42,316 bases of DNA, from NCBI GenBank assembly GCA_946623205.1, contig CAMOQV010000001.1:1-42316 (forward strand), given 5' to 3'. Within the stretch, counting starts at the first letter, position 1. The number at the start of each line of letters is the position of its first letter. A model generated the notes under the pieces. It was not told where the DNA came from and ran no database searches. It saw only the letters and a program-made list of their open reading frames with translations. The position numbers and the translations under genes were made by a program. This document shows, one piece after another, positions 651 through 18,786 of this stretch. Source of the DNA: an uncultured Clostridia bacterium (GTDB taxonomy: Bacteria; Bacillota; Clostridia; Christensenellales; UBA3700).

Positions 651-3600
651 TTATATATCGTTAGGATCCAAGCTAAGTTTTATTTGCCCATATGTAACTT
701 TTATACTATAAGATCCAGTTACATCATTTCCGTTTTCATCATAGATATGTAACTCGCTAATCTTATTTTCTTGTACTCCAACGATTTGTTGTGGTGTTAC
801 AAAAGTGCACGCTATTCTATGTCCGCTAACCAATGTTCCTTGAGATAGGAATACTTCTTGATGTATGCTTCCGTTTGTTATTAATTGAGAAATAGAATTT
901 GTAGAGATTGCAATATATTTTGGTTTAACTACAACAGCATTTCCATTAACAACAATACGATAATTATTTGCAATGTTTGTTGTTCTAAATACATCTGAAC
1001 TGCTATAAACGCAAATCTCGTTTACATTCAAATCCGCAGCCTTAATTACGCCAGCATTAACAATTGGGCCCCTTATGCTTTGCATTGTCCATTCAATTAC
1101 AACATTTGAAGGTTGAGAAACTATTGTCCAAGCATTTGTCTTTGGACTTATTTCTTGTCCAGTGTATGTCTTAATGTAATTCTTTACATTAATTACAATA
1201 ATTTCCTTATCTGTCATTTCTACTTGGCCGTCAACCATATGGATGATAAATCTATTTGTAACATCATTTCCATAAGAGTCGAATAGCTTAAACTTCATAA
1301 TTTTACTTCTACTTATTCCAACGCCGACTTGACCGCCCAAAATCTCACATTCATATGTATATCCTTTGCTAATCAAGTTTTCAAACAAGCCTTTGTTTAC
1401 ATAAACTCCACTCTCGTTTGTAAATTCATATGATTCAACTTGTTGCTTTGGAGCAAGCTCAGCATCTGGATTCAATGGATCAAATGAACCTAATGTAAAT
1501 ACTGGATGTATATACATTTCTTTATCATAGAAATAATCTTCAACGTTAACAGTACTTGAAATATCTGAATCTTGTGAATTCTCGTTGTTGCTACCGCTTC
1601 CGCTAGCACCACCACTACTATTTGAATCGCTTCCAGTAACTTCTACAGCAATCCATCCCAATCCATATACATATACTTCAACCCAAGCATGTGCTTGTTT
1701 TTTAGTAATTGAAGTCTTTGTGTTAGGTTCTGTAACTTCGCCCTTTAATCCAACAACAAGTCTCGCTGGAATGCCTAATGTTCTATATAACAATGTTGCA
1801 GCACTTGCATAATGTCTACATACACCTTCTTTGTACTTAGTTAAGAATGCATATACAAAATCTGATTCTTCATCTAACGCTGGATCATATGCTAAGTTAT
1901 ATTTAGCAGACTTTTGAATATATTGAGCAACCTTTTGAATAACTGCAGAATCGCTAATTGTAAAGCCTTGACTGTTTATAATACTGATTAAATATTGTTT
2001 CAATTCGCCATCTGGAACAGTTAAATAATTAGATCTAAATAAATTGCTCATTCTATAATCTTGCTCAATTATTCTTAAATCTTGAGTTGTTTGAGATAGT
2101 TGAGTTAATATACCAACTGTTGAATCTCTATATTCTATTTCATACCCAAAGCCATCATGTTCTAATGTATGCAACTCTTGTGGATCCATATATTCCATTG
2201 CTGTATAGTATGGAACTAAAGCACCGTCAATAAATGATTTGATTGTTACATTATTTTTGCTTACTCCTAAATCACCTAGAGCAAGGCCTGTTAGAGCGTT
2301 ATATGAATATGTCTTTTCGTTATATGTAAATGTTCTATTTGCAATAGAACTATCCTCTGCATTCCATGTTGATCCTGTATAGTTTGCATAAGCTTCAGTC
2401 TTTAGATAAATCGATCCTGCGACATCTGATGTAACCATACATAATACTGATTCTTTATCTGCACCATTGTTATCTTGGTAATCAAAATTTTCATCCCAAT
2501 CTTGAATATTATCTTCTTCTGGATCTTCTGGCATATCTTTTTCGTCTGCAACGATTGTTAATGTACCGAAAATAATATTTACTGGCTCATAGAATTCTTC
2601 GTGTTCCCCATATACTTTAGCTGATGCCTTATTTGGAACAGAACCAATATCTACAATTCTTCCGTAGATTTCAACCGCAAGTTGATCGCCTTCTAAAACA
2701 GAGCCTGTCTCGATAATATAATGGTCATACATTAATGGAGTGCCACTATATACTGCATATTTACTACCTGTCTTTATGGTAATTTTTCTCTTAATGATTT
2801 CTATGTTACCTTTTGTGTCAATATTATATTCATAGTTTTCGCTAACATCTACATCATTTGTTTCATCTTCATCGCCATCACTGCCATCGAAAACAGAGAT
2901 ATCATAATCTATAATGTATGTTTCGTTTTCAGATAATCCTAATTCTAATCTTCCGCCGCCAAATGTAACGCTATTTACGACCATATAATGGCCATCAACG
3001 AATCTGCTTACTTTTTGCAACTTTCCATCTACAATACCATCTACAAGAATCTCTTCAATATCTTTTGCTGTTTGCATTTCGCCTGTGTATTCTAATGAAG
3101 CATTAGATGGTCTAATATAAATTAGTTTCTTATGAATAATTAAATTAATACTGCTAAATTCAACTATTGTTCCAGCTAAATCGACAAACGAAATTGCATA
3201 ATAGTTAGCTTCTTTATACTCATCTAAATCTGCATCATAAGTTAAAACTTTAATATCGCTTGTGTTTATTACGTATTCACCTGCATTGGTTTTAGCGAAT
3301 TCAGCTACATTAATAATATCGTCGCCTAATAGTTTTGTGTTATCTATAATATATTCGCTAATGTTAGGTGTATGCTCTTTAGCATCATATTCATATTCAA
3401 TATTGCTAATTTGGATATATATTTGTCTTGCTACGATATTTAAAGTTTGCGTTCTTAATTCAACATCATAACAATCAGCGTTGTCTAGAATATATTCACC
3501 AATCTCAACTGTATATTCGCCAATCTCTGTGCCTTCGCCTATAAATTCGAGAACACGTAATTCGTCGCCGCCAACCAAGCTTCCTTCTATAAATTCATAT

Positions 3601-6600
3601 TCATCTATAGTATGAACTTCTCCATCGTATTCAACCTCAATATGTTTTGGAGCAACAACTAATTTACGAGGAACGACTTGCACATATGATTCATCATTTG
3701 TGTACGTAATAATAAAGTTACTTGTAACTGTGTATCTCATCGTGCCATCGCTGTATGTTATTACAGGATTACTCATCGAAGCATAGCCATCTCCTGGAGT
3801 CTTTACGCTTAAGCTATATGTTGGGCTAAATGTGAATATTATTTGCTCTAGAGCATCATCTATTATGAATGCATTTGCTGCTTCACCTGCTGCTATATGA
3901 TCACCACCAAACACAATTGCTGGAGTATGAGCTTTACCATCATATTCAAATACCGAATGTTCCGCTTCTTCATCCCAAGCCACATTTAAAACTCTCGGAT
4001 TAATTGTTAATGTAACAACTGGAACATCCGATTCAATTATTGTTCCTTGTGCGTTTCTATAATTAACCTCTATTCCATCTTTCACGAAATGGACATTATA
4101 ATATCCTTTCATAAATAGATCAAAATCTATCATAGAGTAGCTATATACATAATCTGCATTTTGTACATCTTTTACGTTTGCAGTTGTATATGGGGCTAGA
4201 TTTAATTTATCGCCAAATACTAAATTAGTCTCATCTTGTAGCGGATCTCTATATGAAACGTTGTTATATTCGTCTTCTTCTTTAATAACTTCATGTATAT
4301 CTGGACTATGCTTTAATCCATCATATGTATATTCTGCGTTTGCTATAGAAATATAAATATGTATTGGGTTGATTGTCAATGTAACTGGGTTTGGTCCCAC
4401 TGGAAGAACCTGATAATAGTCAGCAGGGATCCTCTCGCCATAGTTATTATATGAAACTATTGGATAATACTCTTCAACAGTTTCTATTCCGTTAATTGTC
4501 TTTGTAATAGTATTGTTTTGAACATCGTAAACATACGTGCCAACACCAATAAAGCCTTTGTTTATAACTTCATCTCCTGGCAACAATTCATATCCATCTA
4601 CTGGATAGAATAAAATTTCCGCAAATTTCTCGTTGCCATCATATGTTACAGTGTTATCCTCTGTATGTAGATATACTGGTACAGGATTAATAGTTAGATT
4701 AACCATAGGGTTTGAGCCATCTTTTAATGCATTATCCCCATCTACAAATCCTAAAATTGTATAATTGCTTGTTACTTCTTCATTGTTAGCATTTAATATC
4801 TTTAATTCGCTTAATTCGAATTCGTAAACATAATCCCCATCTGCGATTGATTTAATCGTTGTTCTTGTAAAGTAGTCTACATTGAAATGGTCTCCATCCA
4901 TCAAGCCAACATCGCTACCAACTATTGGTTCATAGCTATCATTGACCTTCTTTACTACGCTAAAGGTTGGAGAGTGTGGTTGTCTATTATATATATAAAC
5001 TCCATTTACGGCCTTAACATAGATCTCTCTATTTACGATAAATAGAGTTACACCTTCTATGCCCTCATCAAACAATACGCCATCACTATCTACATAGTGA
5101 ATGTTATAATATGTAGCATACTCTAACGAAGCTGCCATCTTAATTTGAGCATTTAGTGGAGCGAAATGATATGTTCCAATTTCTTTGCCTTTATATGGTT
5201 CTTTATCTAATGTATCGCCAGATAGTAGATTTGTATTATTGAATGAAACTACATAAGAAACAACGCTATCAACAGTTTGCTTCATCACTTCTTGGATGCT
5301 TGGATAATGGTCTTTTCCGTCATAGATAATAGTCGTATCAGTCAATTGATAATATATATCTATCTTCTTAATAATTAACTCAACATAAGCCATACCTTGA
5401 GCAAATTCATTATCGTTTGAATCAATGTAATGAATTTCATAGTATGTTGGATCTTCGGCAGCCATTCTCTTTATTTGCATTTCAAATGGATTAAATGTAT
5501 ATTCGCCAACTTCTATTCTTTCAAATGGAGATAAATACAAATAATCATTTGTTAACAACATCGACTCTTCTGCATCGACATATTGAACTAAATCTGCATC
5601 CCAAACAACTTCTTTAATTGTTGGAGTATGCTTATTTCTATCGTAAGATACTTGAGTATCTATTAACTTGATATAAATATCTCTCTTTTCAATTTCAAAA
5701 GCTGATTGAGTATTATCATCTTTAAATGATATTTGATAATAATCAACAACTTGCTTATTAGCATCTACAATTGTAATACCTGCAATATCTATTGCATATT
5801 CCCCTATATCTGTTCTTTCATAAGGCGTAATATCAATTGAATCTCCATCAAGTAGGTTACTTTCAAAGCTATACTCTTTAATATTTGGATTTTGTTTTGC
5901 TCTATTATATGGAGTTGTATATATAGCATCTATGCTAATTACGATATCAATCTTTGTAATTTCTAATGTTACTTGAGCGTTTTCAACATTAATTGTGTTG
6001 TTCAATTTGTCTACATAACTAATGTTGTAATACGTACATGCAGTATATACATTGTTTTTATATTTAGCGATTGGATAATAATCCTCTATAGTTTCCTCGC
6101 CATTTACATTCATCGTAATCTTATTTGTATATAAATCATATGCATATGTGCCAATTGCGCTAAATACTGGAACGTATGCTATATCTCCTGTCAATATCTT
6201 TGTAGTTTCTTCTGTTGCATCAACATATGTACCTGATACGTCATCGTAATATACTTCTTTTATTATTGGACTATGAAGCTCTCTATCAAATGATGTTGAG
6301 TAATTATCTAACATCAAAGTAATTTCTATTGGAACAATTGTAATTGTTACAAATATATTACCTTGCGTTACTGGTACTGCGTCAACAGGCATACCATTTC
6401 CATCTAGTGTTATTGCATAATATTTAATTTCATAATAATCAACAACTTCTTGCGCACTATTTAAAACCTTTTTATCGTTTAGATCAAACGTATCTGTACC
6501 CACATCAGTTCTCTTATAATCTGAAGTTGAATATGAATCCCCAGATAATAAGGCAGCATAATCTGGGATAACCCCGGCATCGTGTGCATGGCCGTCGTAT

Positions 6601-9600
6601 GTGAATGTATATTCTATTAACCCAATTTTGAATTCTATTTTACTAATTATTATTTGAGCTGAAGATATATCATCTTTAAATGTTATGTTATAGCAATATG
6701 TCTCTATATCACCATTTGCGTCCTTAATGTTAATATCAGATATATCAACATCATATGATCCAATATCTGTTTGTCCATATGGTGTTAAATCTAGATAATC
6801 GCCAGAAATCAAATTGCCTTCATATGACACTTTTGGATATTGCACTTCTCTTGTATAAGAAGAATCTAAATCTTCTATCGTAACTAATACGTCTATCTTT
6901 TCAATTGTTAATGTAGATAGGATATTATCAAACGAAATATCGTAATACGAAACAGCACCATCTGATTCATTAACGACTTCTATATCGCTAATATCGATAT
7001 TATATACACCTGGGTTAATCTTTGCATATGGTGCAAGATTCAAGCTATCACCATTTAAGCAACTTCCTGATGTAATGCTAATTTCCGGACGTTGATAATC
7101 TCTTGTATATGTAGTAGTTTTTGATGGTTCAATAGTAACCATTAAAGCTCTCTTTGTAATATTGAATGTTATAATTGCATCATCTAAATCTATAGAATTG
7201 CCATCCAAATCTACAAAATAGATTTCATAATAACTAGCATCAGAATCCACATTATCTTCATTATGAAGAATTGGATAATAATGTTCCTCTAAAACTGCTT
7301 CGCCTATTGTTGCAGTAAGTGTTTGCGTTTTAAAGTTGAAAACATAGCTTCCTATTTCAATAAAGCTTCTAATTGTCAAATAATCGTCAGGTAACAATAC
7401 TGAAGAATTTGTTTCTGCAGATACATATTGAGCGCCATCCCATAGGACTTCTTTAATATGTGGTGCATGAGATGTCTTTGTATATTCATAAGACTCATCT
7501 TGTATTATTTGTAAATATAAATCGATTTTCTTAATAGTTAATGTAACGCTATCTTTATTATCCTTATAAATTACATTGTAGCAATCTGTAACATCTTCTT
7601 GCGTTTCGCTATTTAGAATCTTTAAATCATAATTTGTAAAACCATAAATTCCAACTTCTGATCTTAAATAACTATCTTTATCTATATAATCATTTTCTAG
7701 TAACTTCGATTCCCCGCTTATTACTTCTTCTATTTCTGGTCGAACATATCCTCTATCGTATTTATAAATTTTATCTGTTAACGCAATAGTAATAACTCTT
7801 GGGACAATTGTTAATGTAACTGATGTCTTATCCTCATAGCAGTGTATTTGATAATGATGAGTTACGTCTTCTCCTGTCTCTAGATTATGGAATTTAATTT
7901 CATCTGCATAATGAGTATATGTGCCAATTTCGCTATGCCACCAACCAACATCGCTATATGCATCTCCTGTCAATAAATAGCCTTCCAAAAACTGATTGCC
8001 TTCCAAATCTACTGATTTCATAGTTGGCATATAATTAGCTCTTGAATACTCTACTTCTCTATCCTCTAAGCGCAAATATACATCTATTTTTCTAATTGTT
8101 AGATTTGCTATAACATCTTCACTATCTAAATAAGGTGTATCTAATTCATCAACATAAGATATCTTATAATAATCAACATTAATTAATTCTTCATCAACTC
8201 GTCTTTGAATTATATTAAAATCTTCCTCTTCATCATCTGGCATTAGAATCTTATTTTGTGTTAGGTTATAGTTATATTCACCAACTTCGATAAACTCTCT
8301 TGTAATGAAGACATCCCCATCTAATAAGCTTCCACTCAATAATTCAAATGTTGGATGATGTGCTTGTCTATCAAAAGCAACATTAACATCTGTTATCCTT
8401 ATTGTTAATTCAATAGGATTAATTGTTAATGTTACAATTTCTTCAGTATTTATAGTGTTATCTTCATTGATAAAACCTAAAATTTCGTAATACGTCTTGA
8501 TATTTTCTTCATTTTGATCGTATATCTTTAGATTGTTTAAATCAAAGGTATATGTATAATCATCTTTGTTTAATCTCTCATCTAATGGCTTTACGTGCTC
8601 TCTTGTAAAGAAGCCAAGATTGAATCTATCTTCACCAAGAAGACCAATATCGCCATTTTCAATTTGCACATACGAAATGTCATTAGTTAATTCATCTACA
8701 ACTTTCTTAACTATAATAATCTCTGGACGATATTGTTTTACACCTTCAAATGTAAATGTCTTATTTATAGTCTTTATATAGAATGCTCTCTTTATAATAT
8801 TCAATGTAGCTACATCTTTGCCTTCAACAAATCTTACATCGTAATAGCTAACTTCATCACCATTTGAATTTCTAATCTTTACGTTTTTAATGTCATATTC
8901 ATAACTACCAACTATGCTGTTTCCAAATTCAGATACATCAATATAATCACCCGCAAGCAACTTGCTCTCGCCATCTATATATTCAAATGCATTGATAGCA
9001 TAGTAGTTATCATCAAATATAACTGTTTTTTCTTCATTTGTTAGAGTAACAATTCTCTTTAAAATCTTTAAGCTTCCGAAATCTTCATCTACAATTGTGA
9101 AATATTTTTCTGAGTTATAATCTAAAACGGCTCTAACAACAACCTCAGATTCTGCCAATACCGGGTTGTAATCTATCATCTTTGCAAGAACTGGATAGAT
9201 AGTACCTGTTCTATTATTTTCCGTATCATATATGCCAGGCAAATCTAACTCTTCTGGCACATATGGTTCATATTCTCCCGTTAGTGCATTTAATCTTAAT
9301 AGATAATATGTTGGTTCATCCTCGCTATATAAAGCAGTGCCGTCATATTCTTTTTCTTTGCTTTGAGTTGTTACCTTTAATTTAACTTTTTCTACAACTA
9401 AATCGCCTAATACCAACTTTAATTTATAGTTAGTACTCTCTATGCCATTTTCATAATCATCTTCGCTTTCATATATCTTAATATCCAAATCGTTTGTTAG
9501 TGTCCCTGGATATGTAAGTGTAGGAATCGAAGATCCTTTACTAACTCGAATTAGCGCATCTTTATATAACGTTCCTTCTACGTGTTCAAATCCAGCCGTT

Positions 9601-10772
9601 AAAGGTAGCCCATCGAACGTTTTTTTGTTTGCTAATGTATTAACTGTAATTTCTGCCTTTTCAACCTTTAGTGTGCCAAATCTTGGTACTATTTCATAGT
9701 TTGCCAAGTTTGTATTATCATTTGGATACCATTGCACAGAGTTTTGAATAGTTGAAGCGTTTGTAATCTCTTTAAAATCGCCAAACGAGAATCCTTCGCC
9801 TTGTGGTAATAAAGTAGAATCGTAAATTACTGTTTTGTCGCTAAGAGGCGTACCATCATATGTTTTTGTTTTATCGTTAGTCTTTATCTCTAGTCTTATC
9901 TTAGCTACATTTACTCTTCCATAGTTATAATGCACATCATAATATTTGTTTGTAACGTCTTTGCCATCTTTGTTCAATATTTTCATTGGCATATTGTTTG
10001 TGTATATGCCAGCATTATAACCAAATGTCTTTGGCGTAATATCTATAGAATCTGAATAACAAAGATTACCTGAAGATATATCATATTGAGATAATTCAAA
10101 TGTTTGGCCATTATATGTAGTATTTATACTTTCAGTATCGATTGTAATTCTCTTTTTCGTGAAATCAACTGCTTTTGTTTCTAATATAATGTTATAAGCA
10201 TCAGTTACATCTAAGCCTTCTTTGTTTATAATCTTCAACTTGTCTATATCTGGAGTAACATTAAATGTGTTTTCGTCTACATCATCAAATATAAATGAAT
10301 CACACTCTATCTTATCTGCATAAGCTAAATCGCTCGTTAATCTTAATATAGTGCCATATTCTATTTCATTATTTACAATGCAAATTGTAATGTCTTTCTT
10401 TTTGATGACAACACTAACTGCCTTTCCGTGTTGCGTCGCACCAAAAGATCTTTCAGAAACGGTTCTTATTTCATATTCACCTGGAGTTTCTGGCAATCCA
10501 GCAGTCCATTGTGTATCATTCTTCTCTTTATATTCTGTTGTAGATTTACTAAAGATACTATTTGATTCATAATAAACTCTCTCACCATAAGTTAAATCTG
10601 TTTCCCCAACGACAGGATCAAGAATCATACCATTAATACCAACTAATGTTGAAACGACAATAAAGACAGCAATCAAGCAAGCTATAATTAAAATCTTATG
10701 CTTAATTATTGAATCTCTAATTGATGCTAACGTCTCTAAACGTTTTTTGTAGATATCGTACGTTACTTTCAT
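651..10772 (-). CDS. giant (3,373 aa) type-II membrane-anchored surface protein: MBG-like repeat array plus transglutaminase-like cysteine-protease core
   Basis: Uninterrupted ORF whose ATG overlaps the upstream stop (TGATG). N-terminal K/R-rich segment followed by a hydrophobic helix, ILIIACLIAVFIVVSTLVGING. About 26 tandem repeats of roughly 85-110 aa (pattern K-x-I-x-I, Y-D/N/T-G/R-x-x-H-x-P, LL-x-GD, G-x-Y, YY-x-I, TLTI). Acidic linker ADEKDMPEDPEED. TgpA-like module with GVCRHYASAA (Cys codon 1818-1820) and HAWVEVYVYGLGWIAVEVTG (His codon 1689-1691). Ser/Gly/Asn linker, then about 3 more repeats. Confidence 0.9.
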   Translation of the reverse strand: MKVTYDIYKKRLETLASIRDSIIKHKILIIACLIAVFIVVSTLVGINGMILDPVVGETDLTYGERVYYESNSIFSKSTTEYKEKNDTQWTAGLPETPGEYEIRTVSERSFGATQHGKAVSVVIKKKDITICIVNNEIEYGTILRLTSDLAYADKIECDSFIFDDVDENTFNVTPDIDKLKIINKEGLDVTDAYNIILETKAVDFTKKRITIDTESINTTYNGQTFELSQYDISSGNLCYSDSIDITPKTFGYNAGIYTNNMPMKILNKDGKDVTNKYYDVHYNYGRVNVAKIRLEIKTNDKTKTYDGTPLSDKTVIYDSTLLPQGEGFSFGDFKEITNASTIQNSVQWYPNDNTNLANYEIVPRFGTLKVEKAEITVNTLANKKTFDGLPLTAGFEHVEGTLYKDALIRVSKGSSIPTLTYPGTLTNDLDIKIYESEDDYENGIESTNYKLKLVLGDLVVEKVKLKVTTQSKEKEYDGTALYSEDEPTYYLLRLNALTGEYEPYVPEELDLPGIYDTENNRTGTIYPVLAKMIDYNPVLAESEVVVRAVLDYNSEKYFTIVDEDFGSLKILKRIVTLTNEEKTVIFDDNYYAINAFEYIDGESKLLAGDYIDVSEFGNSIVGSYEYDIKNVKIRNSNGDEVSYYDVRFVEGKDVATLNIIKRAFYIKTINKTFTFEGVKQYRPEIIIVKKVVDELTNDISYVQIENGDIGLLGEDRFNLGFFTREHVKPLDERLNKDDYTYTFDLNNLKIYDQNEENIKTYYEILGFINEDNTINTEEIVTLTINPIELTIRITDVNVAFDRQAHHPTFELLSGSLLDGDVFITREFIEVGEYNYNLTQNKILMPDDEEEDFNIIQRRVDEELINVDYYKISYVDELDTPYLDSEDVIANLTIRKIDVYLRLEDREVEYSRANYMPTMKSVDLEGNQFLEGYLLTGDAYSDVGWWHSEIGTYTHYADEIKFHNLETGEDVTHHYQIHCYEDKTSVTLTIVPRVITIALTDKIYKYDRGYVRPEIEEVISGESKLLENDYIDKDSYLRSEVGIYGFTNYDLKILNSETQEDVTDCYNVIYKDNKDSVTLTIKKIDLYLQIIQDESYEYTKTSHAPHIKEVLWDGAQYVSAETNSSVLLPDDYLTIRSFIEIGSYVFNFKTQTLTATIGEAVLEEHYYPILHNEDNVDSDASYYEIYFVDLDGNSIDLDDAIITFNITKRALMVTIEPSKTTTYTRDYQRPEISITSGSCLNGDSLNLAPYAKINPGVYNIDISDIEVVNESDGAVSYYDISFDNILSTLTIEKIDVLVTIEDLDSSYTREVQYPKVSYEGNLISGDYLDLTPYGQTDIGSYDVDISDINIKDANGDIETYCYNITFKDDISSAQIIISKIEFKIGLIEYTFTYDGHAHDAGVIPDYAALLSGDSYSTSDYKRTDVGTDTFDLNDKKVLNSAQEVVDYYEIKYYAITLDGNGMPVDAVPVTQGNIFVTITIVPIEITLMLDNYSTSFDRELHSPIIKEVYYDDVSGTYVDATEETTKILTGDIAYVPVFSAIGTYAYDLYTNKITMNVNGEETIEDYYPIAKYKNNVYTACTYYNISYVDKLNNTINVENAQVTLEITKIDIVISIDAIYTTPYNRAKQNPNIKEYSFESNLLDGDSIDITPYERTDIGEYAIDIAGITIVDANKQVVDYYQISFKDDNTQSAFEIEKRDIYIKLIDTQVSYDRNKHTPTIKEVVWDADLVQYVDAEESMLLTNDYLYLSPFERIEVGEYTFNPFEMQIKRMAAEDPTYYEIHYIDSNDNEFAQGMAYVELIIKKIDIYYQLTDTTIIYDGKDHYPSIQEVMKQTVDSVVSYVVSFNNTNLLSGDTLDKEPYKGKEIGTYHFAPLNAQIKMAASLEYATYYNIHYVDSDGVLFDEGIEGVTLFIVNREIYVKAVNGVYIYNRQPHSPTFSVVKKVNDSYEPIVGSDVGLMDGDHFNVDYFTRTTIKSIADGDYVYEFELSELKILNANNEEVTSNYTILGFVDGDNALKDGSNPMVNLTINPVPVYLHTEDNTVTYDGNEKFAEILFYPVDGYELLPGDEVINKGFIGVGTYVYDVQNNTITKTINGIETVEEYYPIVSYNNYGERIPADYYQVLPVGPNPVTLTINPIHIYISIANAEYTYDGLKHSPDIHEVIKEEDEYNNVSYRDPLQDETNLVFGDKLNLAPYTTANVKDVQNADYVYSYSMIDFDLFMKGYYNVHFVKDGIEVNYRNAQGTIIESDVPVVTLTINPRVLNVAWDEEAEHSVFEYDGKAHTPAIVFGGDHIAAGEAANAFIIDDALEQIIFTFSPTYSLSVKTPGDGYASMSNPVITYSDGTMRYTVTSNFIITYTNDESYVQVVPRKLVVAPKHIEVEYDGEVHTIDEYEFIEGSLVGGDELRVLEFIGEGTEIGEYTVEIGEYILDNADCYDVELRTQTLNIVARQIYIQISNIEYEYDAKEHTPNISEYIIDNTKLLGDDIINVAEFAKTNAGEYVINTSDIKVLTYDADLDEYKEANYYAISFVDLAGTIVEFSSINLIIHKKLIYIRPSNASLEYTGEMQTAKDIEEILVDGIVDGKLQKVSRFVDGHYMVVNSVTFGGGRLELGLSENETYIIDYDISVFDGSDGDEDETNDVDVSENYEYNIDTKGNIEIIKRKITIKTGSKYAVYSGTPLMYDHYIIETGSVLEGDQLAVEIYGRIVDIGSVPNKASAKVYGEHEEFYEPVNIIFGTLTIVADEKDMPEDPEEDNIQDWDENFDYQDNNGADKESVLCMVTSDVAGSIYLKTEAYANYTGSTWNAEDSSIANRTFTYNEKTYSYNALTGLALGDLGVSKNNVTIKSFIDGALVPYYTAMEYMDPQELHTLEHDGFGYEIEYRDSTVGILTQLSQTTQDLRIIEQDYRMSNLFRSNYLTVPDGELKQYLISIINSQGFTISDSAVIQKVAQYIQKSAKYNLAYDPALDEESDFVYAFLTKYKEGVCRHYASAATLLYRTLGIPARLVVGLKGEVTEPNTKTSITKKQAHAWVEVYVYGLGWIAVEVTGSDSNSSGGASGSGSNNENSQDSDISSTVNVEDYFYDKEMYIHPVFTLGSFDPLNPDAELAPKQQVESYEFTNESGVYVNKGLFENLISKGYTYECEILGGQVGVGISRSKIMKFKLFDSYGNDVTNRFIIHMVDGQVEMTDKEIIVINVKNYIKTYTGQEISPKTNAWTIVSQPSNVVIEWTMQSIRGPIVNAGVIKAADLNVNEICVYSSSDVFRTTNIANNYRIVVNGNAVVVKPKYIAISTNSISQLITNGSIHQEVFLSQGTLVSGHRIACTFVTPQQIVGVQENKISELHIYDENGNDVTGSYSIKVTYGQIKLSLDPNDI
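2558..10400 (-). repeat. protein-level tandem array of about 26 diverged MBG-like (YDG ... NY/YY ... TLTI) Ig-like repeats inside the giant CDS
   Basis: Repeat boundaries were read from the translation (recurring TLTI/LTIN-P/K-x-I-x-I junctions). The copies are diverged at the protein level, and I saw no long identical DNA stretches. Confidence 0.7.
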
Positions 10773-12992: not shown

Positions 12993-14438
12993 CTAAATGT
13001 TATTTACAATGTTATGAATGTATTGTTTACATCTTGGCATTGCTTCCTCTCCAAATAGTTCATTTAGCTTGTCTACTAACCCATCTGCTCCATTTTTAAC
13101 GTAGATTGGGTTCTTCATCTCAAGCTTTCTCAATATCTTCTTAGATAAGATATCGTCTAACGCATCAAGTTCTTCTCCGCCACATCCAATGTAAATCGGT
13201 ACATACTTATTTATTTGCATCATAATTCTGTTACCAAATGTTACTTGGAAATGCTTCGTTAAGTAATTGTCTAATTCCTTTAACTTCTCTTTGTTTCTCT
13301 CTGTTAATGCATTCTCTTGTTGTGCATTTAATATCAATCGATCAAAATCTTTTGCACTTAAATGTAGATTAGAACTATTTCTTCCTCTAAATGGTTCACA
13401 CTTGTTATCCAAGTTTAGAATCATAGCTCTATCGTATACCTTATCTGAAATAGCAAATGTACTATCATCATTGTTTGCTGTTCCAATAAACCACATGTTT
13501 GTTGGTAATTGTATTTGTCCATCTTTCAAACTTGCTGGGTCTGTTGCCCACTTGTCTGAAACTACTTCCATATATCTTTCATCTGCTCTTGGTAATTCCA
13601 ATAAAGATAAGAATTCTGCAAAGTAATACTCAACTCTCGCAATATTCATTTCATCTAGCACTGTTATATAGATGTCTTCTGAATAATTCGCTTCATACAT
13701 CTTCTTTAATAGAGCTGTTTCATTAAAGTGCTTTGTGAATTCATTGTAATATCCAATAAGGTCTGTTCTTTCCTTCCACATAGGTTGAATTGGAATAACT
13801 GTTGATGGATTCTCTACAAATCTACCAAATGCATATGCAAGTGATGTCTTACCTGTACCAGACATACCTTGCAATATTAAGATGTGAGATACTCCAAGTC
13901 CAGCTATGAATGACCTAATATCTTCTGCTCTGTAATATAACCCTAATTCATTTGCTGAATAGTTTCTAAAATCATCACAGAACATCTCTAATGTAATATT
14001 GTTGATGTAATCATCCTTTGAATATGTCTCTCTCTTCTTATCTATTTGCTTCAATATGCTGAATCTAGATATGTTCTTGTTGTTCTTATCACTAGCTTTG
14101 CTTGAGCCTATACTTCCTGTTCCTTCAACTAATAATTCGTTTGGCAACGATAGTTGATATGAACCATGATGTCTTTGATATCTATACAAGGCTCTTGCAT
14201 TTTCTCTAATTCTTTTGAAGATAACGATAACAGTCACTAAAAGTACAATTGGAGTACCAATTAAAAGAGCGATTAAATATACGAAATCTATTACGTTTTG
14301 TTCTTCAATATATTTTTTGAACTCTTCAATATTAGCAACTATTACCAATTCCAAGATGAAAGCAACAATCACAACGATTATTGCGGCTACAATCATAACA
14401 TTAGTTAGAGTTATTTTCTTATTGTTTGAACTTTTCAT
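12993..14438 (-). CDS. membrane-anchored McrB-type AAA+ NTPase (481 aa, two N-terminal TM helices)
   Basis: Walker A GMSGTGKTS (13842-13868). Walker B plus following helix VLDEMNIARVEYYFAEFLSLLE (compare McrB IIDEINRANLSKVFGE..LLE). LPTNMWFIGTANNDDST (compare McrB NVYIIGLMNTADRS). Two hydrophobic helices lie at the N-terminus, followed by a basic stretch, KRIRENARALYRYQRHH. Confidence 0.8.
   Translation of the reverse strand: MKSSNNKKITLTNVMIVAAIIVVIVAFILELVIVANIEEFKKYIEEQNVIDFVYLIALLIGTPIVLLVTVIVIFKRIRENARALYRYQRHHGSYQLSLPNELLVEGTGSIGSSKASDKNNKNISRFSILKQIDKKRETYSKDDYINNITLEMFCDDFRNYSANELGLYYRAEDIRSFIAGLGVSHILILQGMSGTGKTSLAYAFGRFVENPSTVIPIQPMWKERTDLIGYYNEFTKHFNETALLKKMYEANYSEDIYITVLDEMNIARVEYYFAEFLSLLELPRADERYMEVVSDKWATDPASLKDGQIQLPTNMWFIGTANNDDSTFAISDKVYDRAMILNLDNKCEPFRGRNSSNLHLSAKDFDRLILNAQQENALTERNKEKLKELDNYLTKHFQVTFGNRIMMQINKYVPIYIGCGGEELDALDDILSKKILRKLEMKNPIYVKNGADGLVDKLNELFGEEAMPRCKQYIHNIVNNI
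12994..14110. repeat. direct repeat copy A (1,117 bp), apparently 100% identical to 15982-17098
   Basis: Base-by-base reading agrees. The encoded C-terminal ~370 aa are identical, as are the antisense shadow ORFs (13267-13626 = 16255-16614; 13499-13726 = 16487-16714). The offset is a constant 2,988 bp. Confidence 0.9.
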
Positions 14439-15981
14439 CTTCTACCTTCTTAAACAATATTTCTCTTTGTAGTCTCTTCTTGGTCTTCTTCCATGCCATT
14501 TTGTAATACTCGCCGATTACTTTGTATTCCTTTTCGATTAATTTAAACTTGTCCTCATCTGTATAGTCTTGATAATCTACTTCCAATCCAAGTTGATTTC
14601 TAAATGCATTATTTTGTGTAATTGCACTATCAAATTTCTCTCTTTGAAGCTCCATTGAATGTTGCATGTTTGCTAATTCTTTTTCAAGATTACCTTTTGC
14701 TTGAATTAAATTGCTTCTTTCGTTGTTCACTTGGCCTAGTTCTTGTTCAAAAACCGCTTGTCTTTGAGCTATTTTGTTTTCATAAGCTATTGCCATGCTT
14801 GCTTTTTCTTCTTGCAAGTTCGCAATATCGCCCTTTAGTGCTTTAATTGTTCCTTTTTGTTTTTCAATAACGCTATTTGCACTTTGAAGTTCTAGTAATT
14901 GAGATTCTAGATATTGGATTCTTTCATTTTGTATTAAAATGTATTCATCTATTTCCTTTCCGCTAAGCTTTTGCTTGCCTCTTAATTCTTGAATTCTCTC
15001 TTTAACTTCTTCAATTCTTTCAGCTTCTTCGATCTTCAATTGTTTTTCCATTTCTTCTTGAAGAGATTCGCCAAGTTCCATACTATGCATTTGCATTAAG
15101 AACAATAGCAACAAAACTGTGTTATTGAAATCGTCTTCAGCTTCTCTATCTAATTGTTTTTCAACAGCTTCTCTTGTAATAGAATATCCTGGTGCTGAAT
15201 ATGTAGATATATATTCATATAAGGCAAGAGCATATTTGAAGTTTGTTTCCATTTTTAAAACGTTAGTTTTTGTAATAGGTGGCTTAATCATTGGCACCTT
15301 GCTTACTTCTACCATAAGCGGAGTAGATAGCAATTTCAAAATAGCGTTTAAAACGTCTTCAATTCTTTGTACAACTTTAGCGTTAGCACTATCTTTAGAC
15401 AATGACATATTCTCATCTTCAATATTGATTGAATATGTAATATTTCTTTGTTTTGTTTTATATTTAGAGCCAATCTCTAAAACTGTGTAATATTTTCCTG
15501 AATATTCTGTAATCTTGTTATATCTTTCAGTTGTGAAGTCTCTTAAATAAGTTAATAGCAAATACAAGAATCTATTCTCATAAACAGCATAATCACTTAG
15601 CTTTTCTACGGTGTAAATCTTTTCTGGTCTTACTTCATCTGTTTCTTCGTCAATCTCTTTAATTAAAGATGCGTGCTTTGCAAGATGGCTAATAGATTCT
15701 TTTGATACACTCTTTGTCTTTTCAATTAAAACAACTTCTCCGTTTGTTCTAATGAATTGTCTTTCTTGCGAAATTGCCTTTTCTATATACTTTAGATTGT
15801 TTTCAATTTCGCTTATCCAATCTTCTGTTACTTCACACTTAATTCTTTCTATTGAAAGCTTAGATATCTTACTTGAACCAAGCGAGTTGATTTGACGTAA
15901 AAAGTTTTGGATACCCTTATCCTTTAGCGCAAACTTTTTATATTCAACAAACGCTCTATAGTAATAATCTATCGTTCTCAT
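14419..15981 (-). CDS. McrC-position partner protein: DUF2357-like N-terminal region plus long coiled coil, no nuclease domain (520 aa)
   Basis: Sandwiched between the two McrB-like genes and translationally coupled to both (TAATG at 15981; 20-nt overlap at 14419-14438). The YAVYENRFLYLLLTYL motif (about 15568-15582) resembles the ENRF(V/L)K motif of DUF2357/McrC-like proteins. Residues ~300-470 are heptad-rich and E/K/Q/L-rich (EEMEKQLKIEEAERIEEVKERIQELRGKQ...). No PD-(D/E)xK signature is visible. Confidence 0.6.
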   Translation of the reverse strand: MRTIDYYYRAFVEYKKFALKDKGIQNFLRQINSLGSSKISKLSIERIKCEVTEDWISEIENNLKYIEKAISQERQFIRTNGEVVLIEKTKSVSKESISHLAKHASLIKEIDEETDEVRPEKIYTVEKLSDYAVYENRFLYLLLTYLRDFTTERYNKITEYSGKYYTVLEIGSKYKTKQRNITYSINIEDENMSLSKDSANAKVVQRIEDVLNAILKLLSTPLMVEVSKVPMIKPPITKTNVLKMETNFKYALALYEYISTYSAPGYSITREAVEKQLDREAEDDFNNTVLLLLFLMQMHSMELGESLQEEMEKQLKIEEAERIEEVKERIQELRGKQKLSGKEIDEYILIQNERIQYLESQLLELQSANSVIEKQKGTIKALKGDIANLQEEKASMAIAYENKIAQRQAVFEQELGQVNNERSNLIQAKGNLEKELANMQHSMELQREKFDSAITQNNAFRNQLGLEVDYQDYTDEDKFKLIEKEYKVIGEYYKMAWKKTKKRLQREILFKKVEDEKFKQ

Positions 15982-17318
15982 TAAATGTTATTTACAATGT
16001 TATGAATGTATTGTTTACATCTTGGCATTGCTTCCTCTCCAAATAGTTCATTTAGCTTGTCTACTAACCCATCTGCTCCATTTTTAACGTAGATTGGGTT
16101 CTTCATCTCAAGCTTTCTCAATATCTTCTTAGATAAGATATCGTCTAACGCATCAAGTTCTTCTCCGCCACATCCAATGTAAATCGGTACATACTTATTT
16201 ATTTGCATCATAATTCTGTTACCAAATGTTACTTGGAAATGCTTCGTTAAGTAATTGTCTAATTCCTTTAACTTCTCTTTGTTTCTCTCTGTTAATGCAT
16301 TCTCTTGTTGTGCATTTAATATCAATCGATCAAAATCTTTTGCACTTAAATGTAGATTAGAACTATTTCTTCCTCTAAATGGTTCACACTTGTTATCCAA
16401 GTTTAGAATCATAGCTCTATCGTATACCTTATCTGAAATAGCAAATGTACTATCATCATTGTTTGCTGTTCCAATAAACCACATGTTTGTTGGTAATTGT
16501 ATTTGTCCATCTTTCAAACTTGCTGGGTCTGTTGCCCACTTGTCTGAAACTACTTCCATATATCTTTCATCTGCTCTTGGTAATTCCAATAAAGATAAGA
16601 ATTCTGCAAAGTAATACTCAACTCTCGCAATATTCATTTCATCTAGCACTGTTATATAGATGTCTTCTGAATAATTCGCTTCATACATCTTCTTTAATAG
16701 AGCTGTTTCATTAAAGTGCTTTGTGAATTCATTGTAATATCCAATAAGGTCTGTTCTTTCCTTCCACATAGGTTGAATTGGAATAACTGTTGATGGATTC
16801 TCTACAAATCTACCAAATGCATATGCAAGTGATGTCTTACCTGTACCAGACATACCTTGCAATATTAAGATGTGAGATACTCCAAGTCCAGCTATGAATG
16901 ACCTAATATCTTCTGCTCTGTAATATAACCCTAATTCATTTGCTGAATAGTTTCTAAAATCATCACAGAACATCTCTAATGTAATATTGTTGATGTAATC
17001 ATCCTTTGAATATGTCTCTCTCTTCTTATCTATTTGCTTCAATATGCTGAATCTAGATATGTTCTTGTTGTTCTTATCACTAGCTTTGCTTGAGCCTACA
17101 TTGCCAACGCCCTTAACCTTAATAGCCTTGTCTGGCAATTGAAGTTCAACTGTTTGTGTTGTTTCTCTAAAATCTTTTGCTTGCTTTGCTTGGATGATAA
17201 GCAAAATAACCATTATCGCAATGAAAGACACAATCAACGTAGAATAAATAATAATCGCATACGTTGATGTGAAAATATCTATGATTTCACTGGACAATAA
17301 AAATAACGTATTAAGCAT
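15981..17318 (-). CDS. membrane-anchored McrB-type AAA+ NTPase (445 aa, N-terminal TM anchor)
   Basis: Same AAA+ module as 12993-14438 (Walker A 16830-16856, Walker B DE 16638-16643), with a different N-terminus: IIIYSTLIVSFIAIMVILLIIQAKQAK. GGAGGA sits 6 nt upstream of the ATG. Confidence 0.8.
   Translation of the reverse strand: MLNTLFLLSSEIIDIFTSTYAIIIYSTLIVSFIAIMVILLIIQAKQAKDFRETTQTVELQLPDKAIKVKGVGNVGSSKASDKNNKNISRFSILKQIDKKRETYSKDDYINNITLEMFCDDFRNYSANELGLYYRAEDIRSFIAGLGVSHILILQGMSGTGKTSLAYAFGRFVENPSTVIPIQPMWKERTDLIGYYNEFTKHFNETALLKKMYEANYSEDIYITVLDEMNIARVEYYFAEFLSLLELPRADERYMEVVSDKWATDPASLKDGQIQLPTNMWFIGTANNDDSTFAISDKVYDRAMILNLDNKCEPFRGRNSSNLHLSAKDFDRLILNAQQENALTERNKEKLKELDNYLTKHFQVTFGNRIMMQINKYVPIYIGCGGEELDALDDILSKKILRKLEMKNPIYVKNGADGLVDKLNELFGEEAMPRCKQYIHNIVNNI
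15982..17098. repeat. direct repeat copy B (1,117 bp), apparently 100% identical to 12994-14110
   Basis: See copy A. Identity stops abruptly at 17098/17099 (copy A 14110/14111) and at the stop codons (TAA here, TAG in copy A). Confidence 0.9.
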
Positions 17319-18786
17319 CTATATCCTCCAAAAAATCATCAATATCTTCAATTTCGTCATCATCTTCATATTTTGAAGCTCTTATTAAATCGTCATCGCT
17401 AGCTAATTTTGCTTCATCATCTTCGTAATCTATCTCGTCTTCTTGCTTCTTTGCGAATCTATTTGAATAATACTCTTCATCTTGATCATTATTTGAAGAA
17501 CTTGCATTTGCATTTTCTTCATACATATAATCCATCAAAACTCTAGATAACTCTTCATTCTTTGTTCCGATTAAATGAGAAATCTTCTTTGTCATTTCCT
17601 TATCGTTTGCGCTACTAATAATTGGTGCAACTAAAGGCAAAATTCTTTCTATTAAGATAGTGTTTCTAAACTCTTTTTCTGGAATGCCAAATTGGCCAAG
17701 TAATGATACAAATCTTTCGATTTCAACACATTCTTTATTAGACAATTTAACTTCCTTTTGAATTGCCATAATACTATCAATGAACTTCCAATCATCTTCG
17801 CTCATCATGAACGAGCCCTTTTGCGAATCAATTCTATACAAATAGTCGTATGTAACATCACATGAACCTACAGACTCTACACGATCATTTGTTGGTCTTG
17901 GATGTATTTCAATGATTGTAGCTGCTTTTCTCAATTCTTTTGGATACCACTTAATTTCATCAAATGTTTCAATTGCGCAGAATACAATGTGAGATGGAAT
18001 TCTCAAATTCTTATTCTTGTATTCAAGTTCTACGTCGCTATATCTAACATTCAATAGTGGTAGAGTTGCAGCCAAAATATCTTGTTTTTCTGGACCAAGA
18101 TTTACAAGTTCTATTAATCTTAGTTCTTCAAGACCTAAATCTTTATCCAATGCTCTAACTAATGATTCTGTATTAAATACGATATCCATATCAAATTGCT
18201 TTGATTTAATACCAATACTTGCTAATTGATCAATAATAATTCCACCAAGCTCAATATCGTCTGTATTTAATACAACAAACTTTCCAGATAAAACTGCACT
18301 AATTACTCTTATTGCTTCTTTAGAATCTAGAGTAACTCCTCTTTCTTGTAAATTTTCTAGGAATATATCTAGAACATCTGAATATGCTACATAATTCTTA
18401 ACAATCTTTTGATTAACTCTTTCTCTCTTTGAAATATTAAATGCTGAATCAAAGAAATATTCGATTGCTTCATTTTTATTCTTTTGAGTATAACGAGATG
18501 TTAACATTTCAATCTGAGTTATCTTGCTATATGTTGGATCCTTTAATTTGTTTCTCATATTTACTGCGGATAATCCCAAAATTGCAAATGCTATAAATCC
18601 AGCAACCATCATCATGATGCATGCTGACAACCAAACTACATCAATATCACTTGTTGGAGAAAAACTTCTAACAAGTGGAACTGTCAAAGCAGCAAGGCCT
18701 GCAGCCATCATTACATATAAAGCTCTTTGCCAGCCGCTATCATACATTTTTAATGGAGACTTTTCATATGAATCATATCTTCTCAT
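17311..18786 (-). CDS. membrane-anchored degenerate paralogue of the McrB-type module with poly-acidic C-terminal tail (491 aa)
   Basis: Two N-terminal TM helices. The cytoplasmic part aligns by eye with the neighbouring ATPases but lacks the catalytic motifs: LNTDDIELGG replaces LQGMSGTGKTS, LIELVNLGPEKQDILAATLPLLN replaces VLDEMNIARVEYYFAEFLSLLE, and IPSHIVFCAIETFDE replaces LPTNMWFIGTANNDD. About 60 C-terminal residues are D/E-rich. AGGAGG RBS. Confidence 0.6.
   Translation of the reverse strand: MRRYDSYEKSPLKMYDSGWQRALYVMMAAGLAALTVPLVRSFSPTSDIDVVWLSACIMMMVAGFIAFAILGLSAVNMRNKLKDPTYSKITQIEMLTSRYTQKNKNEAIEYFFDSAFNISKRERVNQKIVKNYVAYSDVLDIFLENLQERGVTLDSKEAIRVISAVLSGKFVVLNTDDIELGGIIIDQLASIGIKSKQFDMDIVFNTESLVRALDKDLGLEELRLIELVNLGPEKQDILAATLPLLNVRYSDVELEYKNKNLRIPSHIVFCAIETFDEIKWYPKELRKAATIIEIHPRPTNDRVESVGSCDVTYDYLYRIDSQKGSFMMSEDDWKFIDSIMAIQKEVKLSNKECVEIERFVSLLGQFGIPEKEFRNTILIERILPLVAPIISSANDKEMTKKISHLIGTKNEELSRVLMDYMYEENANASSSNNDQDEEYYSNRFAKKQEDEIDYEDDEAKLASDDDLIRASKYEDDDEIEDIDDFLEDIDA

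Follow-up and report, generated by a model that had tools for sequence, protein, structure and literature searches.

How can two genes of one operon keep more than a kilobase of identical DNA while the sequence on either side of it differs? The question is raised by the window, that is, the whole stretch of 42,316 nucleotides analysed here, which is the entire contig C1 (CAMOQV010000001.1) of a 148-contig, 1.32-Mb, short-read-type metagenome-assembled genome (MAG) from an uncultured Clostridia bacterium (assembly GCA_946623205.1; Christensenellales, UBA3700; completeness 86.6%). It carries an operon with two genes for membrane-anchored McrB-like ATPases, here called A1 and A2, on either side of a middle gene, B, and the C-terminal core of each ATPase is encoded by one copy of a direct repeat. 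In the following we argue that the two cores are very probably anciently duplicated tandem ATPase modules that have been overwritten by each other through gene conversion.

The repeat and its borders

Comparison of the window with itself gave a single perfect run of exactly 1,117 bp (100% identity) at an offset of 2,988 bp, as the first-pass annotation of this DNA had reported, while all other runs at that offset were 5 bp or shorter (coordinates in Table 1). The abrupt loss of identity that it described at both borders is real: over the first 30 nt it falls to approximately 30-40%, the 30-nt windows immediately beyond either border being 20-47% identical. At the 3' side the two stop codons do indeed differ: A1 ends in TAG (12995-12993), followed by one base and the ATG of a transglutaminase gene, and A2 ends in TAA (15983-15981), which overlaps the ATG of B as TAATG. 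The roughly 370 identical C-terminal residues of the earlier count are exactly 371 in the 481-aa A1 and the 445-aa A2 proteins, and the identical antisense open reading frames (ORFs) of 119 aa at 13267-13626 and 16255-16614, which had been listed as support, are the opposite strand of the repeat and nothing more.

At the 5' side, a distant relationship between A1 and A2 can still be recognised over the approximately 18 residues preceding the repeat, in agreement with the annotation, and because this faint relationship persists upstream of the border the original duplication must have been longer than the present tract. Beyond these residues the membrane anchors are as dissimilar as had been stated. 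A1 has a basic N-terminus followed by a two-helix hairpin (hydrophobic windows peaking at residues 16 and 55), and A2 has a single helix with the motif S/T-x-Y-A-I. Between the two copies lies a unique spacer of 1,871 bp (14111-15981) that holds B. Self-BLAST of the assembly (148 contigs, 1.32 Mb) returned no further repeat of at least 200 bp at 90% identity or more.

Cores pair by genome, anchors by position

The sister species G005, from the same genus, has the same gene order as the window, and the identity between its two cores is 99.2-99.5%, with a perfect run of 1,034 bp. The repeats of the two species share 87.6% nucleotide identity; among 356 codons, 87 differ synonymously and 27 non-synonymously, the fourfold-site divergence is 24%, and the flanking proteins are 44-76% identical. 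Within the genome under study there are zero differences in 1,117 bp, so that homogenisation reaches the synonymous sites and cannot be put down to purifying selection alone. In a four-way protein alignment of the window and G005 every species-specific core substitution was common to both paralogues of that species, while the anchors paired A1 with A1 and A2 with A2.

The same pattern was found far outside the genus. A scan of species-representative genomes (GTDB) returned 26 related loci from gut Clostridia MAGs (Christensenellales, Borkfalkiaceae and others), eight of which, together with the window, have both ATPase genes placed around a B homologue and followed by transglutaminase genes. 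In these nine two-copy genomes the identity between the copies of the repeat (approximately 1.1 kb, nucleotide level) is 100% in the window, 99.65% in L053, 99.5% in L038, 99.3% in L042, 98.8% in L051, 98.7% in L054, 97.7% in L044, 93.9% in L039 and 92.5% in L046, while the cores from outside the genus of the window share approximately 62-65% protein identity with the window core. In the core protein tree the upstream and downstream copies pair by genome in 9/9 cases, and on core DNA a tree forced to keep all upstream copies in one clade and all downstream copies in another cost 3,110.8 log-likelihood units, so that orthology of the cores is rejected (approximately unbiased (AU) test, p = 1e-58). 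The anchor tree separates an upstream type (one helix, S-G-Y-A-I) from a downstream type (two-helix hairpin) with a support of 99/100, and the two types occupy the same respective positions in all nine genomes.

Since the anchors group by position while the cores pair by genome, the duplication is old and the core alone has been homogenised. The earlier proposal of an older duplication with its catalytic module under gene conversion and its anchors kept distinct thus gains strong support from the core and anchor trees, the AU test and the comparison with G005.

The shape of the tracts gives an impression of the likely mechanism. In 9/9 genomes homology starts just past the anchor and linker and stops at the stop codon or a few bases from it, with a 5' border that moves by tens of bases among genomes and repeat lengths of 1,098-1,208 bp. 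Perfect runs of 910-1,118 bp are present in six genomes, the longest in the unrelated L053; the mismatches are confined to the 3' end in L051 and to the 5' end in L054, and a mosaic pattern, in which the perfect runs measure 155-233 bp, is seen in L039, L044 and L046. Such variable borders and partial tracts fit what general homologous recombination would be expected to leave, and a recA gene is found in this genome. We propose that the cores overwrite each other by RecA-type homologous recombination, as intrachromosomal or sister-chromatid gene conversion. A tract would be limited at its 5' side by the unrelated membrane anchors and at its 3' side by the stop codon with different genes beyond it, and the borders would be razor-sharp because repeated conversion runs only as far as homology lasts; divergence next to the edges would then block any extension of the tract. 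The last conversion in this genome would have been recent enough to leave no difference at all between the copies.

Selection may act on the outcome as well. Summed over the paralogue pairs the core differences comprise 159 synonymous against 14 non-synonymous codons, while the four closest pairs of different genomes give 467:127 (Fisher p = 3e-5), and at similar synonymous divergence L039 and L046 together give 125:9 against 87:27 for the window and G005 (p = 2e-4). These ratios suggest that selection favours identical core proteins, and by the same counts the core proteins are held near-identical even where conversion has lapsed (L039 and L046). The uniformity of the core therefore hints at a shared ring or a shared partner for A1 and A2, and it is likely that both anchored forms work in, or with, one assembly and the same partner B.

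Possible collapse of the copies, deletion-type contigs and other explanations

Several points weigh against gene conversion as described above. All sequences, and with them the identity of the copies, come from the consensus of metagenome assemblies. We infer the conversion events from the phylogeny rather than observe them, and co-assembly is a putative rationale for protein uniformity; the values of 93.9% and 92.5% for L039 and L046 testify to long lapses of homogenisation, and the between-genome synonymous counts used above are partly saturated. In the public assembly ERZ27257202 the repeat fragments found beside B differ from the repeat of a through-contig at 4/311 compared positions, one explanation being non-identical copies in a single genome. 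Finally, de Bruijn-graph assemblers thread a collapsed repeat twice, and because collapsed near-identical copies receive one consensus twice, both the “perfect” identity and the “shared” polymorphisms reported below can arise by construction.

The annotation had warned that this is the kind of structure short-read assemblers mis-build, and its worry can be divided. The exact 445-aa protein is present on six public contigs, and the full layout is present in four further conspecific assemblies (L029/L028, L030, L031 and L034, the last by way of the variant protein P0010). Each of these four has an internally perfect 1,117-bp repeat and carries 1-5 strain-specific single-nucleotide polymorphisms (SNPs), each of them in both copies. 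Where the copies differ at many sites (68 mismatches in L039, 79 in L046 and 25 in L044) the layout ATPase-B-ATPase-transglutaminase is unambiguous. Because the divergent-copy genomes and the conspecific assemblies share the layout, the architecture is not mis-built; four conspecific assemblies and eight other genomes clear it. The exact perfection of the repeat is not cleared in this way. In another conspecific contig (L035 67-1588; ERZ28612973 scaffold_47860) B is called as two pieces of 303 and 177 aa instead of 520 aa, either because the copy is disrupted or because it was wrongly assembled.

It is thus possible, although we consider it rather doubtful, that the architecture is real while the letter-perfect identity is partly an assembly product, a few true differences having been popped into one consensus. 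The MAG is of the short-read type with 148 contigs, and in 5/5 conspecific assemblies with both copies resolved the repeat has no internal difference, as graph threading would yield. In G005 both intra-repeat differences lie near the repeat ends, where unique flanks can phase them, and in ERZ27257202 the four differences between the B-attached repeat ends and the through-contig repeat are at positions 32, 917, 1001 and 1085. On the other hand, other genomes were assembled with two distinct copies that diverge by 0.4-7.5% and have mismatches scattered along the repeat, and the unrelated L053 has its own perfect run of 1,118 bp. Even if a collapse had taken place, the copies must be approximately 99% identical or more, and the conclusion of gene conversion stands.

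As a by-product of homogenisation, the direct repeat also makes the locus prone to lose 2,988 bp through RecA or to be amplified in tandem; identical 1.1-kb direct repeats 3 kb apart are a standard substrate for RecA-dependent deletion and amplification. The deletion arithmetic of the annotation is correct, in that recombination between the copies removes 2,988 bp, comprising B and the A1 anchor, and leaves the A2 anchor on one core, directly upstream of the transglutaminase gene. Two public contigs have the predicted arrangement of the 491-aa gene, the A2 anchor, one core, TAG, one base and the transglutaminase gene. L032 (ERZ27257202, k141_6076168, 8,058 bp) is 98.7-99.4% identical to the window, and L066 (JAEEGL013447803.1, 6,742 bp) is approximately 85-87% identical and represents a third lineage. 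Since L065, a 97% identical relative of L066, carries the end of B, A1 and the transglutaminase gene, the L066 lineage also exists in the full form.

We initially took L032, and then L066, as firm evidence of deletion and downgraded both once a further contig from the same assembly as L032 was found to carry the missing segment. This contig, L087 (k141_4541531, 2,184 bp), consists of 200 nt of the repeat end, B, the A1 anchor and 111 nt of the repeat start; its overlaps differ from the L032 repeat at the four positions given above, and it ends within 2 nt of strain-variable sites. Because L087 is present with different SNPs, the L032 sample holds the “deleted” segment together with at least two repeat haplotypes. 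Either two non-identical copies exist in one genome and L032 cuts across the stretch that they share in the middle of the repeat, or the sample is a mix of a deleted strain and a full-length strain. For the assembly that holds L066, one scan of a metagenome collection found no other contig with B, which is weak negative evidence. Two other candidates for a deletion form were rejected: L048 has the downstream-type two-helix anchor and is a normal 3' half of the locus, and L045 begins inside the core, so that its anchor is not visible. A real deletion haplotype is accordingly possible but unproven.

From the same arithmetic the annotation had derived a potential recombinational switch. In its fullest form the repeat would be an on/off or dosage device, with the deletion contigs as real haplotypes and RecA-mediated pop-out and re-amplification toggling the locus between a two-anchor machine with B and a one-anchor form, and selection would keep the cores identical partly for that and partly for a mixed ring. 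The exact predicted junctions in two contigs from different lineages speak for it, as does the full form in the L066 lineage. L032 also bears the k141 contig name of MEGAHIT, an assembler that does no repeat resolution by path extension. Against it, the “deleted” segment is present on L087 in the very assembly of L032, and the ends of L087 at strain-variable sites point to an assembly graph tangled by several haplotypes, where a contig could plausibly take a shortcut. An A2-type anchor adjoining the transglutaminase gene was found in 0/26 species-representative loci, and no inverted repeats of at least 30 bp were found in the 11-19 kb region of the window. A Pfam scan of nine operon proteins of the window, to which it was limited, detected no recombinase. 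A programmed switch is unlikely because direct repeats delete or amplify and never invert, a deletion between them being irreversible without the excised circle. We therefore do not retain the switch as proposed, and we regard the whole on/off or dosage scheme, and likewise the toggling between two forms, as improbable.

It is very improbable that the tandem layout itself is mis-built, with either a single real ATPase gene or a one-copy chromosome accompanied by a free 2,988-bp circle. We note that the de Bruijn graph of upstream flank, repeat, B, repeat and downstream flank would have the same edges as a one-copy chromosome plus a repeat-B circle, and short reads would not separate identical copies. 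The divergent copies in L039, L046 and L044 nevertheless show the tandem layout unambiguously, five conspecific assemblies from different samples agree on it, and a 3-kb circle without a replication gene would not be expected to persist.

Recent independent duplication of the core in each lineage, without conversion between old duplicates, could account for the very high within-genome identity and for the known single-copy arrangement (A2-B-transglutaminase in G031/L055), and is excluded for practical purposes because the anchors are position-specific while the cores pair by genome: the same gene order is found in nine genomes whose cores are only approximately 62-65% identical, the same two position-specific anchor types recur, and the distantly related residues before the repeat show that the duplication reached further and had time to diverge. 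Gene conversion between old duplicates remains our explanation of the near-identity.

Genes of the locus and known systems

The genes of the locus are all on the minus strand in the ORF list. The order of transcription is a 250-aa protein, a 338-aa LRR_5 protein, the 491-aa membrane protein, A2, B, A1, the 739-aa transglutaminase-core protein and the 3,373-aa protein (Table 1).

Table 1 Features of the twin ATPase locus in the window.
Feature	Position	Strand	Basis and remarks
A1, membrane-anchored McrB-like ATPase, 481 aa	12993..14438	-	ORF and translation; anchor and linker encoded by 14111-14438
A2, membrane-anchored McrB-like ATPase, 445 aa	15981..17318	-	ORF and translation; anchor and linker encoded by 17099-17318
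Repeat copy 1	12994..14110	-	A1 core: last 371 residues and first two stop-codon bases; perfect match to 15982-17098
Repeat copy 2	15982..17098	-	A2 core: same 1,117 bp; perfect match to 12994-14110
Middle gene B, 520 aa	14419..15981	-	DUF2357-like N-terminal half; long C-terminal helix or coiled coil
Transglutaminase-core gene, 739 aa	10772..12991	-	Transglut_core E 8e-22; directly downstream of A1
3,373-aa protein with transglutaminase core	651-10772	-	Last gene of operon
491-aa membrane protein gene	17311..18786	-	5' flank of unit

Both ATPases match the Pfam family AAA_5 with 31.3-31.5 bits (cut-off 22), and in PADLOC their sole match is the candidate family PDC-M26A (E 1e-43), a name unmentioned in the literature searched. 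The nearest solved structure to the core is that of Escherichia coli McrB (E 8e-4), and the alignment with 6hz4 spans the Walker A (GMSGTGKT) and Walker B (LDEMN) motifs as well as an NNDD block opposite NTAD of McrB.

The middle protein is more difficult to place. It matched DUF2357 with E 2.2e-4 and 21 bits, below the cut-off of 23.3, and the family is matched by 9/15 of its homologues with a best E of 2e-6. A Foldseek search of its model against the PDB gave nothing below E 0.16, and no match to a nuclease family was found. Support for the label “McrC-like” given to B by the annotation thus comes from gene position and sub-threshold DUF2357 matches, with no fold match in the PDB, and we regard the label as unconfirmed. 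The AlphaFold 2 model (mean predicted local distance difference test score, pLDDT, 73) contains an unbroken helix of approximately 120 residues (344-463). The most conserved block of the protein is residues 73-106, with the invariant E73 R74 Q75 F76 I77 G81 E82 V83 ... H99 L100 H103, and it falls in a region that AlphaFold leaves unstructured (pLDDT 29-50). It is possible, judging from the model, that these residues adopt a fold only once a partner, for example the ATPase ring, is bound.

The 491-aa protein had no Pfam family match. A tblastn search with the core gave matches just upstream of A2 (20-28% identity, E 1e-10 to 1e-17) in L039, L042, L051, L053, L054, L057 and L060-62, located for example at 7001-7513 in L039, 5939-6919 in L053 and 2373-3380 in L054. 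These matches suggest that the gene upstream of A2 in the relatives may be a third, highly diverged paralogue. As a reading of the 491-aa protein in the window, a dead ATPase paralogue was rejected, BLASTP against A2 being not significant here and the weak tblastn matches being confined to relatives.

Some relatives depart from the twin layout. In two Borkfalkia MAGs (L052 1656-8101 and L056 1742-8077) B is accompanied by a downstream-type two-helix ATPase, a protein of approximately 1,050-1,084 aa stands in the place of A2, and a second core match was not found. In G031, from another family (L055/L024, 6746-12280), an A2-type ATPase (421 aa) is followed by the middle gene (529 aa), a 113-aa ORF and a 730-aa transglutaminase protein, with no downstream ATPase. 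This single-ATPase layout could be ancestral or a secondary loss. We considered the 113-aa ORF as a remnant of an A1 anchor and rejected it, its N-terminus resembling the N-termini of the transglutaminase proteins themselves.

The last gene of the operon also varies, encoding 3,373 aa in the window and 1,594 aa in the sister species (L023 2703-7487). The flanking surface-type proteins are 44-49% identical between the window and the sister species and the ATPase core more than 90%, so that evolution is much faster in the envelope-exposed parts than in the motor. A second, distinct system in the genus combines a membrane-type McrB-like ATPase of approximately 515 aa (core 47-48% identical) with a DUF2357-like partner and different downstream genes. 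It was found on contig C34 of G005 (L026 5166-8344), a genome that also has the twin system, and in G001 (L027 8262-11496); it was not found in the MAG analysed here, which is 87% complete.

Concerted evolution by gene conversion is known from tufA/tufB and from rRNA operons, and the process itself is therefore not new. According to the main text of Wang & Chen 2018 (PMC6053082), only 26 prokaryotic genes were found under long-lasting concerted evolution, which is rare and mostly concerns subunits of stable complexes (22/26 genes), and “functional uniformity” is argued for the tuf duplicates. The present ATPases resemble those genes in that within-genome paralogues are closer than between-genome orthologues in many lineages, and in the age of the duplication, which predates those lineages. 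Homogenisation extends to the synonymous sites as well, traces of selection for a uniform protein are seen (the near-identity of the two proteins where conversion has lapsed recalls the uniformity argued for tuf), and the products are probably subunits of one complex. They differ from them in that the twins, direct repeats within a single operon, lie 3 kb from each other on either side of the presumed partner gene, and in that homogenisation is limited to one module and leaves the N-terminal anchors distinct and position-specific. Neither “ATPase” nor “McrB” occurs in the main text of that paper (0 occurrences each), and in the literature searched we found no paper linking McrB-like genes to gene conversion or concerted evolution. 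What is particular here is a single homogenised module bounded by position-specific anchors, in twins that bracket their presumed partner gene and belong to an uncharacterised membrane-anchored McrB-like system. As in RecA-mediated deletion between direct repeats generally, a product can be predicted for the locus, and it matches the contigs L032 and L066.

With E. coli McrBC (PDB 6hz4, 6ut6 and 7vsr) the locus shares the AAA_5 core with Walker A, Walker B and the N-block, and a partner gene directly downstream of an ATPase gene (A2). It differs in having transmembrane anchors in place of the DNA-reading domain, a partner with a sub-threshold DUF2357 match and no detectable nuclease, two ATPase genes rather than one, and transglutaminase-core surface proteins as neighbours. 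Canonical McrBC consists of McrC with DUF2357 and a PD-(D/E)xK nuclease, and McrB with a DNA-binding N-domain; A1, A2 and B do not show this combination. The closest named class in the literature is CoCoPALM (Bell et al. 2024, PMC11090510), derivatives of McrBC whose GTPase has a transmembrane/coiled-coil (FtsB-like) fusion and whose McrC homologue carries a coiled coil, although membership of this operon is not established. The two have in common an McrB-like GTPase with a transmembrane N-terminal fusion, a protein in the McrC position with a long helix or coiled coil and without a nuclease, and an apparent cell-envelope context. Where CoCoPALM has the NxD signature, the present cores read T-A-N-N-D-D-S, which is compatible with NxD followed by D as well as with NxxD. 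In contrast to CoCoPALM, the Pfam scan of the operon gave transglutaminase-core proteins and no signal-peptidase family (pilus assembly) gene; neither A1 nor A2 shows an evident coiled coil, although no search aimed at one was made; and PMC11090510 is silent on twin ATPase genes or homogenisation.

For practical work on this family, the locus fragments short-read assemblies and can give deletion-like contigs, and gene trees will be misleading because the paralogues look like recent duplicates. Long-lasting homogenisation is a known phenomenon that has rarely been documented in bacteria. Here, the two ATPases, although anchored differently, apparently must not diverge in their protein core, and this pattern hints at the function of a so far unstudied McrBC-like system, membrane-anchored and nuclease-free, in uncultured gut Clostridia.

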